This document shows positions 661 through 2,997 of a DNA stretch of 5,020 bases, one piece after another (position 1 is the first letter of the stretch; each line of letters begins with the position of its first letter). The stretch lies in the IMG/VR virus record IMGVR_UViG_2737471846_000016. One strand, written 5' to 3'. The notes below the pieces were generated by a model that worked only from the letters and a program-made list of their open reading frames with translations, searched no databases and was not told where the DNA came from. Made by a program: the position numbers and the translations under genes. This DNA is from a virus (Duplodnaviria; Heunggongvirae; Uroviricota; Caudoviricetes).

Positions 661-1638
661 TCATACTGTTGCAGTGCCACAGCGAGCCCCCCACGTCACC
701 GTATCGCCGGGGTGGTAGGTTTCACCGGCTCTGAACACACCGCGGTAGAGCATCACCGGCAGGGAAAATGTTTTTTCCGTACGCTGGCCACTGCTCTGCC
801 GGACCACCACAGTGAACGACCGTTCGCCGGTCATGCTGACGTCAATATCGGCCACCCCGTCAACCAGGCATTCCCATCCCCGCATCCCGTGCGTTTTTTC
901 ATACGCCCGCCAGAGTCCGCCCTGGTGTGTGGCATACGTGCCCCGGGGAAAGGATTTTTGATCGTCAATGGCGGGGATTATTTCCAGTGCCGTGGCATCA
1001 CGCCCGTCCTGCGGAGCCGGCAGGGCTCTCACCGCCTCCAGAACAGCCTTCTGCAGAACATCGGGATCATAGTCACGACCATCACGCGGAACAGGAATAT
1101 GGCTTACCGCCTCTTTCACCATCTGTTCAAGCATCGGACGCACATCATCGGGGGTAATACTTTTGCCGTCCGCCGGTACCGGAATATTCGCAACCGCATC
1201 ATTCACCGCCTGCTTCAGTACTTCCGGATCGTAATCACGACCATCACGCGGAACAGGAATATGGCTTACCGCCTCTTTCACCATCTGCTCAAGCATCGGA
1301 CGCACATCATCGGGGGTAATACTTTTGCCGTCCGCCGGTACCGGAATATTCGCAACCGCATCATTCACCGCCTGCTTCAGTACTTCCGGATCGTAATCAC
1401 GACCATCACGCGGTACCGGAATGGCCCCCACAGCGTCATCCACCATCGCCTGCAGAACCGGACGCACCTCATCCACCGTCACATGCTTCTGTAATACCGC
1501 CGACAGGGAAGTCAGTTTCTCTTCAAACGCTTGTGCCTGCGAGGCCATCTTCCCCTCAAATGTGCGCTGTAAATCCGCCAGCACCGTGGAGAATTCTTCA
1601 CCCAGCGCACGGATAATGGACAGTTCACGCTCTGTCAT
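661..1638 (-). CDS. Repeat-containing phage head-module protein of unknown function (helical N-terminus, about seven copies of a ~27-aa IPVPxDG motif, ~100-aa C-terminal domain)
   Basis: 325-aa ORF with ATG at 1638..1636 overlapping the stop of the upstream ORF (ATGA at 1635-1638). Enterobacterial-type codon usage. The protein contains IPVPRDGRDYDPEVLKQAVNDAVAN and IPVPADGKSITPDDVRPMLEQMVKEAVSH alternating. I do not recognise the family. Confidence 0.7.
   Translation of the reverse strand: MTERELSIIRALGEEFSTVLADLQRTFEGKMASQAQAFEEKLTSLSAVLQKHVTVDEVRPVLQAMVDDAVGAIPVPRDGRDYDPEVLKQAVNDAVANIPVPADGKSITPDDVRPMLEQMVKEAVSHIPVPRDGRDYDPEVLKQAVNDAVANIPVPADGKSITPDDVRPMLEQMVKEAVSHIPVPRDGRDYDPDVLQKAVLEAVRALPAPQDGRDATALEIIPAIDDQKSFPRGTYATHQGGLWRAYEKTHGMRGWECLVDGVADIDVSMTGERSFTVVVRQSSGQRTEKTFSLPVMLYRGVFRAGETYHPGDTVTWGARCGTATV
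1074..1397. repeat. Two tandem direct copies of a 162-bp unit (161/162 identical) inside the CDS 661..1638, flanked by diverged partial copies (about 1040-1073 and 1398-1420)
   Basis: Copy 1 (1074-1235) and copy 2 (1236-1397) differ at one position (t at 1125 vs c at 1287) and encode the identical 54 aa. The motif cacgaccatcacgcgg recurs at 1074, 1236 and 1398 (period 162). Confidence 0.9.
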
Positions 1639-1901
1639 TTTCGCAGTATCCCCCTGAACATCGCCTTCACCGCATCACGCTCTGTTTCGCTTATGGCCTT
1701 ATTACCGTCAGACGCGCCCTCCTGGCGTGTGCCTGACGACGTTTTCCCGGCCGACGCGAACGGCTCCTCACGGGCATCACGACGGGACAGCGCCTCCAGA
1801 CTGTAGTTCTGCTGCTGAAGATACAGTGCATCACCGCCGGCAAGGGGCGGCAGGTTCTCACGTTTACGGGCCTCATTGGGCGTGAGAAGCGTATTTTTCA
1901 C
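1635..1901 (-). CDS. Portal protein C-terminal fragment, in a different frame from the main portal ORF
   Basis: Translation ...NTLLTPNEARKRENLPPLAGGDALYLQ... carries the conserved C-terminal portal motif (T-P-NE-R-x-EN-L-PP-x-GGD). The ORF-track start is GTG at 1901, but the frame is open upstream to 1940. It lies immediately 3' of the portal ORF, whose stop is at 1906-1908. Confidence 0.5.
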   Translation of the reverse strand: MKNTLLTPNEARKRENLPPLAGGDALYLQQQNYSLEALSRRDAREEPFASAGKTSSGTRQEGASDGNKAISETERDAVKAMFRGILRK

Positions 1902-1905
1902 CGAT

Positions 1906-2997
1906 TCACCCAGCGTTTTCGCGACGTTCGCTGTCCATTCTCAGCAGCGTGGTGACGTCAAACTCCGTGCTCTCGTTTTCCCCTGTTTCCAGCGCCTCAT
2001 CCAGTAACAGCTCAATGGACTCAATCAGCGTCTGCAGACACTGGGAATAATACTGCTGCTCCAGCGCCTCCACGTTGTCACTGGAAGGCGGCTGGCCAAC
2101 GCCAATCTTGTAGGCCGGGACACGGAACACCGAACAGACAATTTCAGCCGTCATCTTCAGTTGTTCCACCGTCTGCGCATCCACCGGTGAAAACGTCGTG
2201 GGGCTGTATTTTGCCCCGTTGCTCAGTATGGCCGTCTTCCCCGCATTTTCGCCGGTATACCCGCTGTCCCAGTTGCTCTTCAGTTTTTTCGCATTTTCTT
2301 CCGTTATACTGCCGGGGATCTCAATCACCCCGGACGGCCTGCCGCCATTTCTGAAAAAAGACGTTGAATTTGCCTGAATATGATGCCCCTGCGTGGCCGC
2401 CAGCCCGGCAGCATACACCGGCGGCAGCCCCACAAGCGGATGAAAAAAACAGTTAAACCGGTCGTGGATCACTTCCCGGGCAGGCACCGTCACCGCCTCC
2501 GTGATCCCGCAGTTCCGGTCCGGTGTAATGCGATAGAACACCTCGCCGTCATCCGCCACCAGAGGTTCAACCCGGCTCCAGTCCAGAATACGCAGTTCTT
2601 TGATCTGCCCCCGGGAGTTACGGATTTTCAGCACCACCGTATTGCCGTGACGCAGTTTGGCGTTCAGCCACAGTTCAAAAAACTGGATACGATTCTGCTG
2701 TGCATTGGGACGACGACAGAGACGGGCAATATCCCCCTGCCGTTTTTCACGGCGGATCCCCTGTGTATCGGTCTGCATCAGGCGCAGTCGCATTTTGGCG
2801 ATATCCTGGGATATCAGCGAAATGCAAGAAAACACCGCATGAAAGGAGAGGACACTTTCCGGATCGGCTTTCACGCCCTGCTGCCAGGCGCCGGCAAAAG
2901 GCTCAGCCACCGCCTGAAACAGGCTGGTCCAGCCCACCTCTTTTACATCACGTCCTGATTTCTGGTTTTTTCGGGTTCGCCGCAAAAGGTTCCACAT
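1906..2997 (-). CDS. Phage portal protein, HK97 family (N-terminal about 363 aa; C-terminal region continues in another frame, see 1635..1901)
   Basis: Motifs characteristic of HK97-family portals: FHAVFSCISLISQDIAKMRL, FFRNGGRPSGVIEIPGSITEENAKKLKSNWDSGYTGENAGKTAILSNGAKY, EQLKMTAEIVCSVFRVPAYKIG and a terminal TLLRMD. ATG at 2997..2995 with GGAG 8 nt upstream; an in-frame stop lies just upstream at 3013-3015. Confidence 0.85.
   Translation of the reverse strand: MWNLLRRTRKNQKSGRDVKEVGWTSLFQAVAEPFAGAWQQGVKADPESVLSFHAVFSCISLISQDIAKMRLRLMQTDTQGIRREKRQGDIARLCRRPNAQQNRIQFFELWLNAKLRHGNTVVLKIRNSRGQIKELRILDWSRVEPLVADDGEVFYRITPDRNCGITEAVTVPAREVIHDRFNCFFHPLVGLPPVYAAGLAATQGHHIQANSTSFFRNGGRPSGVIEIPGSITEENAKKLKSNWDSGYTGENAGKTAILSNGAKYSPTTFSPVDAQTVEQLKMTAEIVCSVFRVPAYKIGVGQPPSSDNVEALEQQYYSQCLQTLIESIELLLDEALETGENESTEFDVTTLLRMDSERRENAG

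Follow-up and report, generated by a model that had tools for sequence, protein, structure and literature searches.

The DNA analyzed here is a 5,020-nucleotide (nt) stretch of the IMG/VR virus record IMGVR_UViG_2737471846_000016, referred to throughout as the window, and it appears to derive from a lambdoid prophage remnant of Escherichia coli O165:H25 (clonal complex 119), covering part of its head-morphogenesis module. The portal gene of this module is interrupted by a 2-bp deletion of the dinucleotide AT. The deletion is very probably a real, inherited mutation that reflects the neutral decay of a cryptic prophage, and neither an artefact nor a recoding signal.

In the window, the portal gene is represented by two open reading frames (ORFs). 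The 5′ fragment (1906..2997, minus strand), delimited by translation and by Pfam and PHROG matches, comprises 363 codons followed by a premature TGA at 1908-1906, and translation of 2997..1906 gives a C-terminal end reading ...TLLRMDSERRENAG. The 3′ fragment (1635..1940, minus strand, +1 frame) comprises 101 codons and a stop; its frame is free of stops from 1940 to the stop codon at 1637-1635, encodes ...KTLGESVKNTLLTPNEARKRENLPPLAGGD...RGILRK, and carries the conserved NEARKRENLPPLAGGD motif. The Pfam profile PF04860 (Phage_portal) matched the 5′ fragment with high significance (E=6e-74), covering only profile positions 2-299 of 321, so that in the window copy the domain is not contained as a whole in a single uninterrupted frame. 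A Pfam search with the 101-residue 3′ fragment alone gave no match, and this fragment was placed by PHROG profiles. Residues 1-360 of the first fragment correspond to positions 1-360 of the portal profile phrog_2271, and residues 7-98 of the second correspond to positions 360-451 (E=4e-51). Because these profile positions abut exactly, the two ORFs are adjoining halves of one portal gene, a correspondence far beyond chance. Annotation by the Prokaryotic Genome Annotation Pipeline (PGAP), Pfam and PHROG placed this gene in a head-morphogenesis module together with terminase, capsid and adaptor genes, as expected for an HK97-family portal.

The position of the lesion was established by comparison with intact relatives. 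The window and the corresponding locus of strain 2013C-4830 (L001) were aligned with strain 90-3040 (L002, 99.7% identical) and with O145 strain RM9872 (L003, 99.0%), and a single 2-nt gap was found in the window and L001 relative to both; a global alignment of L001 with L002 placed the same gap. The missing AT lies between window positions 1921 and 1920 (site 1920..1921, minus strand), directly 5′ of a run of four A residues: CGC is followed immediately by GAAAAC in the window, whereas the intact sequence reads CGC AT GAAAAC. In codons, the relatives read CGC ATG AAA ACG CTG GGT and the window reads CGC GAA AAC GCT GGG TGA; across the site, the intact allele is CGCATGAAAAC and the deletion allele is CGCGAAAAC. 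The portal of the intact relatives is one 454-amino-acid (aa) ORF, ...LLRMDSERRMKTLGESVKNTLLTPNEARKRENLPP..., with SERRMKTLGESV at the junction, and the frame break in the window therefore falls at a defined indel relative to intact orthologues. The A4 run itself (1916..1919, minus strand; tttt on the plus strand) is equal in length to that of the intact relatives and, judged from these alignments, is not the lesion.

The original prediction, made from the window alone, had described an HK97-family portal gene split by a frameshift. Its frames and coordinates were correct, as confirmed by translation, by the A4 run at 1916-1919, and by the Pfam and PHROG assignments, and a genuine frameshift is supported. 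Its proposed mechanism did not hold: it had assumed one nucleotide too many in the 4-nt run and a repaired product reading ...SERRETLGESV, whereas the intact relatives instead have an extra AT before the run. The proposed repair places E where the ancestral sequence has MK; the intact protein of 454 aa reads ...SERRMKTLGESV.

Loss of AT from codon 357 converts ATG-AAA to GAA-AAC, shifts the frame, and stops translation after 363 residues. The predicted truncated product is without residues 357-454, the last 98 of the protein; with them go ~22 positions at the end of the Pfam portal domain, the NE-R--ENLPPL-GGD motif, which is conserved, and the C-terminal end. HK97-type portals consist of clip, stem and wing domains plus a crown, which is C-terminal and is turned toward the packaged DNA (PMC10359639). 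Judging from how the alignment is ordered, the window's product would lack the crown and the last part of the wing/stem region, and the truncated portal would be expected to be nonfunctional.

An alternative view of the two-frame layout is that the portal naturally ends ...SERRENAG and that the downstream piece of 88-101 aa is an independent conserved gene; in its favor, gene callers pick an 88-aa ORF with a GTG start (1901..1635). Intact homologues provide consistent evidence against it. The 454-aa homologue matched PF04860 in full (positions 2-321 of 321, E=7e-81), and over query residues 45-400 it aligned unbroken across the lesion site to 8cez/8fql, the solved HK97 portal, and over query residues 42-421, likewise across the site, to the portal gp1 9lbn_H. 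In the intact homologue, the region of the 3′ fragment corresponds to residues ~365-409 of 8cez. The NE-R--ENLPPL-GGD motif is present in these alignments; the window encodes it in the wrong frame. HK97 portal gp3 (8cez/8fql) and portal gp1 (9lbn) share PF04860 with the window's gene and carry the LLR-DS and NE-R--ENLPPL-GGD motifs that flank the break. They are distant from the intact homologue (phmmer E 1e-20 to 1e-29), and the window copy, unlike them, is without the C-terminal ~98 residues in frame.

The same continuity was found at every level of relatedness sampled. An IMG/VR set comprised 80 loci, 75 of them with a recognizable portal start; in all 75 the portal ORF was at least 454 aa long, and none had a stop at residue 363. 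A second set comprised 40 loci from other species at 45-70% identity (Pantoea, Kosakonia, Citrobacter, Erwinia, Rhizobium, Sphingomonas and others), and here the portal frame was uninterrupted in 38, namely 36 complete genes of 417-452 aa and two contig-truncated fragments; the frames of the other two were broken at positions unrelated to the lesion site. Phages BP-4795 (ORF58), JLK-2012 (genus Marienburgvirus) and 1717 (genus Pankowvirus) have the same portal gene and the same module as the window, consisting of HNH, TerS, TerL, protease-capsid fusion, 73-aa ORF, portal, repeat protein, adaptor and head closure genes, with ~94-98.5% nucleotide identity to the window's portal region. They encode the portal in a single ORF of 454 aa, or of 450 aa where a later start is annotated, whereas that of the window is split after codon 356. 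No intact portal ending at LLRMDSERRENAG was found; the relatives read through this position, as do 8cez and 9lbn_H. With the uninterrupted frames in both sets of loci, the solved HK97-family portals that align across the break, and the contiguous mapping of the fragments onto a single PHROG and a single Pfam profile, an independent gene is refuted, and we assign it next to no probability.

To trace the deletion allele, we compared the window with complete genomes, phage records and protein sequences. The window was 100% identical over 5020 nt to NZ_CP027325 (strain 2013C-4830) and NZ_CP013029 (strain 2012C-4227), both E. coli O165:H25. A 100-nt query across the site matched 1247 complete RefSeq E. 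coli records, and identity of at least 99% to the deletion allele was found in two of these, the two source genomes; among the other matches listed, identity was 98% over a span of 102 nt, that is, 2 nt more. The deletion allele was found in none of 92 phage records and in none of the 80 IMG/VR loci. An exact-sequence look-up placed the 363-aa product on seven contigs, including AP026742 (JNE110611), AP026746 (PV06-71) and AP026751 (JNE071324), together with a 1.9-kb draft GenBank contig and SRR20789475 as assembled by Logan; the allele in all of them is CGCGAAAAC. The AP026742, AP026746 and AP026751 genomes are Unicycler hybrids of Oxford Nanopore Technologies (ONT) and Illumina reads from O165:H25 clades B, C and D, and the CDC strains 2013C-4830 and 2012C-4227 belong to O165:H25 clade A (PMC10132054). 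Strains 90-3040 and 2013C-3492, which belong to the sister O172:H25 group (clade H), keep the AT. On these sequences, the allele tracks the phylogeny and evidently originated within clonal complex 119 on the O165:H25 branch, once this had separated from O172:H25.

This distribution bears directly on whether a sequencing or assembly error, of homopolymer type or other, could make a gene that the cell carries intact look frameshifted. Both source genomes, 2012C-4227 and 2013C-4830, are PacBio RSII assemblies produced with HGAP3, in which residual indels are possible, and the lesion site adjoins the A4 run. The change itself does not have the form of a homopolymer error, which would alter run length relative to relatives: a dinucleotide was lost, the missing A and T lie 5′ of the run, and the run length is the same. 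The two CDC assemblies differ over 13.4 kb by a 5-bp tandem duplication in TerL that is present only in 2013C-4830; because of this difference they can be regarded as independent, and the AT deletion is common to both. The same allele occurs in the three ONT and Illumina hybrids from another laboratory and in the two short-contig assemblies, so that the lesion is reproducible across isolates and platforms; it is present in O165:H25 clades A-D and absent from the O172:H25 sister clade. Since the deletion allele is platform-independent and follows the phylogeny, it is therefore a real deletion. An error is largely refuted as an explanation, and the chance that it accounts for the frameshift is very small.

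Several points weigh against our interpretation of the deletion as an inherited, inactivating mutation. The case against error rests on the agreement of independent assemblies and platforms and not on raw reads, and SRR20789475 and the draft contig enter it as assemblies of unspecified platform. Each record contributed its best-matching place to the RefSeq counts, and the module is present more than once in several strains; a second, lower-ranked deletion copy in a record would be missed. The expected loss of portal function is drawn from homology.

The original prediction had offered two explanations, one that the mutation is real and inactivating and the element defective or decaying, the other that it is a homopolymer sequencing error. 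The first is borne out by the independent assemblies and by the other lesions of the element described below. The second, along with the homopolymer mechanism, falls away: the run length is unchanged, and the same allele is seen in PacBio assemblies, in ONT and Illumina hybrids, and in short contigs.

A real deletion could still be tolerated if ribosomes bypassed the split. Around the premature stop the sequence is GGG UGA A, at which a +1 slip of tRNA-Gly from GGG to GGU would keep a glycine codon and move into the correct frame 3 nt ahead of the point where the frames part, so that a recoded gene would yield a near-native portal, ...SERRENAGESVKN.... This context was the only candidate signal in the overlap 1906-1940, where neither an X XXY YYZ heptamer nor a prfB-like SD-CUU-UGA arrangement was found, and no Shine-Dalgarno (SD)-like stimulator lies just upstream of GGG UGA. 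The two-frame arrangement is not conserved across diverged relatives: it occurs only in O165:H25 and is absent from more than 1200 E. coli relatives, from the 92 phage records, and from the 75 IMG/VR and 40 other-species loci. A programmed signal would be conserved, yet this layout is confined to one recent lineage, which makes recoding unlikely. Furthermore, an element without a functional large terminase and tape measure protein has no assembly pathway through which selection could preserve such a signal. Programmed recoding is thus very unlikely, and we give it hardly any credence.

The condition of the surrounding prophage is in accordance with decay of the portal gene. The head genes resemble those of long-tailed Shiga toxin (Stx) phages of the BP-4795 / JLK-2012 type. 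The prophage occupies the tRNA-Ser/mtfA locus (L130, NZ_CP027325 4259000-4273000). Its integrase is frameshifted, and its early region (repressor, replication, Q) is missing, with IS3-family insertion sequence (IS) elements in its place. The methyltransferase gene is frameshifted, the TerB-like gene contains a stop, and an IS2 element splits the DUF3950 gene beside the HNH gene. No stx genes were found between the tRNA genes and the nanS-p-like esterase. Identity as an Stx prophage was considered and rejected, as there are no stx genes and the early region is gone.

Two further essential morphogenesis genes are disrupted. In TerL, codon 189 is changed from TGG to TGA, which was verified directly in O165:H25 2013C-4830 (L001) and in O172:H25 90-3040 (L002); in 2012C-4227, PGAP marks an internal stop in TerL. 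The 5-bp tandem duplication in TerL noted above (GGCTG, L001 3307-3311, outside the window) is found only in 2013C-4830. The tape measure gene has an internal stop in 2013C-4830, 90-3040 and 2012C-4227. Essential genes other than the portal gene thus carry inactivating lesions: TerL W189*, the 5-bp duplication, the tape measure stop, the integrase frameshift, the IS insertions, and the missing early region. The TerL nonsense codon is older than the portal deletion, because it is common to the O172:H25 lineage, in which the portal is intact. The probable order of events would be TerL W189 to stop, then the portal AT deletion in O165:H25, and then the TerL 5-bp duplication in 2013C-4830 only. 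Through the TerL nonsense codon and the tape measure stop, packaging ability would already have been lost when the portal deletion arose. The original prediction's argument that DNA cannot be packaged without a portal has no bearing here, given the older nonsense mutation in the large terminase. The decay is progressive and presumably neutral.

Comparable elements are known from enterohemorrhagic E. coli (EHEC). To the extent that Asadulghani et al. 2009 is reported in PMC10132054, the defective lambdoid Sp prophages of O157:H7 Sakai are likewise cryptic, their morphogenesis and early genes having accumulated frameshifts, nonsense codons, deletions and IS insertions. The O165:H25 element differs from these EHEC Sp prophages in host lineage (clonal complex 119) and in integration site. 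No experiments on this O165:H25 prophage element were found in the literature examined. The AT deletion itself is not novel; it is an ordinary prophage pseudogene, and the RefSeq annotation already labels the gene as a frameshifted pseudogene.

The portal gene is flanked by further genes of the module. Downstream lies a conserved gene (661..1638, minus strand) that is joined to the portal stop by ATGA coupling, has 162-nt repeats in tandem, and is cut to 325 aa by a second frameshift. Homologues of this gene follow the portal in the 40 other-species loci, and its C-terminal part gave a weak CBM5/12-like match. Within the gene, Tandem Repeats Finder identified an array with a 162-nt (54-aa) unit (1046..1473, no strand assigned); the repeat unit reads IPVPRDGRDYDP...VKEAVSH. 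The number of copies differs between relatives, as seen from 162-bp indels relative to 90-3040 (L002) and L134 and from fused ORFs of 807-1023 aa. The second frameshift was located by alignment to a run of six G residues (687..692, minus strand), where most relatives have seven; the 1-nt loss removes the last ~40 residues of the downstream gene, and the displaced C-terminal end forms an ORF at 694..578. Among the IMG/VR loci, the run is G7 in 54 and G6 in 3, and of the strains with the AT deletion, PV06-71 keeps G7, in contrast to G6 in the others. The loss at 687-692 is thus a true homopolymer change, and it may be either a mutation or a sequencing error.

Upstream of the portal, a conserved hypothetical 73-aa ORF (2943..3164, minus strand) overlaps the portal start; it matched phrog_829 (E=2e-39) and is annotated in all relatives examined. 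It is preceded by a gene for a fused prohead protease and major capsid protein (3209..5020, minus strand), identified by PGAP and by the Pfam domains Peptidase_S78 and Phage_capsid. The 5′ end of this gene lies beyond the window, and the fusion is 645 aa in the source genome. In the gene order of RM9872 (L003), the protease-capsid fusion comes after the large terminase gene and before the portal, which departs from the usual succession of terminase, portal, protease and capsid. A head-tail adaptor gene (Ad1, gp6-like; PF05135, phrog_40) is located at 255..581 on the minus strand.

The junction between the portal and the downstream gene carries a polymorphism that is separate from the AT deletion. 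A run of five G residues (1650..1654, minus strand), 270 nt downstream of the deletion, precedes the natural portal stop by four codons. In the G5 state, the portal terminates at ...FRGILRK-TGA, and the following gene begins at the ATGA overlap; in the G6 state, reading carries on as ...FRGDTEKMTERE... through that gene, producing fused proteins of 807-1023 aa. Of 75 IMG/VR loci, 55 are split and 20, about a quarter, are fused (the G6 loci L056, L060, L065-L072, L074-L082 and L084), and the G5 and G6 alleles occur with otherwise identical flanks. BP-4795, an inducible and functional Stx1 phage, has the split form, as do JLK-2012 and 1717. In other genera, the portal and the downstream gene are without exception two genes; the latter begins at an ATG of its own, which overlaps the portal stop, no G-run is present, and the relative frames vary (ATGA, CATGAATGA, TGATG). 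Because the genes are always separate in other genera, separate genes are ancestral, and the window is, on this comparison, in the ancestral G5 state.

A programmed -1 frameshift or translational fusion at this junction, whether at the G5 run (1650-1654) or at A4-TGA (1635-1641), was also considered, prompted by the "frameshifted" calls on intact relatives and by the many fused proteins, and was rejected as a conserved mechanism, as neither a G-run nor an A-run is conserved and the frames vary; in the E. coli variant L047 the A-run is broken. The fused portal-repeat protein could be functional, and slippage in the G-run could toggle between split and fused portal architectures, a proposal that we regard as improbable; alternatively, the fused form is merely another inactivating or neutral indel.

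This polymorphism also bears on annotation. NCBI contains numerous "portal" proteins that are fused or partial. Even intact prophages have their portal labeled "frameshifted" by PGAP, which draws a single pseudogene over the portal and the next ORF, and some Japanese phage records list a "portal protein (pseudogene)". The "frameshifted" label on intact relatives stems mostly from the G5/G6 polymorphism when compared with fused reference proteins, and is distinct from the AT deletion. Annotation flags alone should accordingly not be used to score these prophages as defective.

Taken in its biological context, the AT deletion matters little, being one decay step of a cryptic lambdoid prophage in Shiga toxin-producing E. 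coli O165:H25. It provides a clean lineage marker that distinguishes O165:H25 (clades A-D) from the sister O172:H25. As for co-resident Stx phages, the element would be unable to supply either a portal or a terminase to hybrid particles formed with them.

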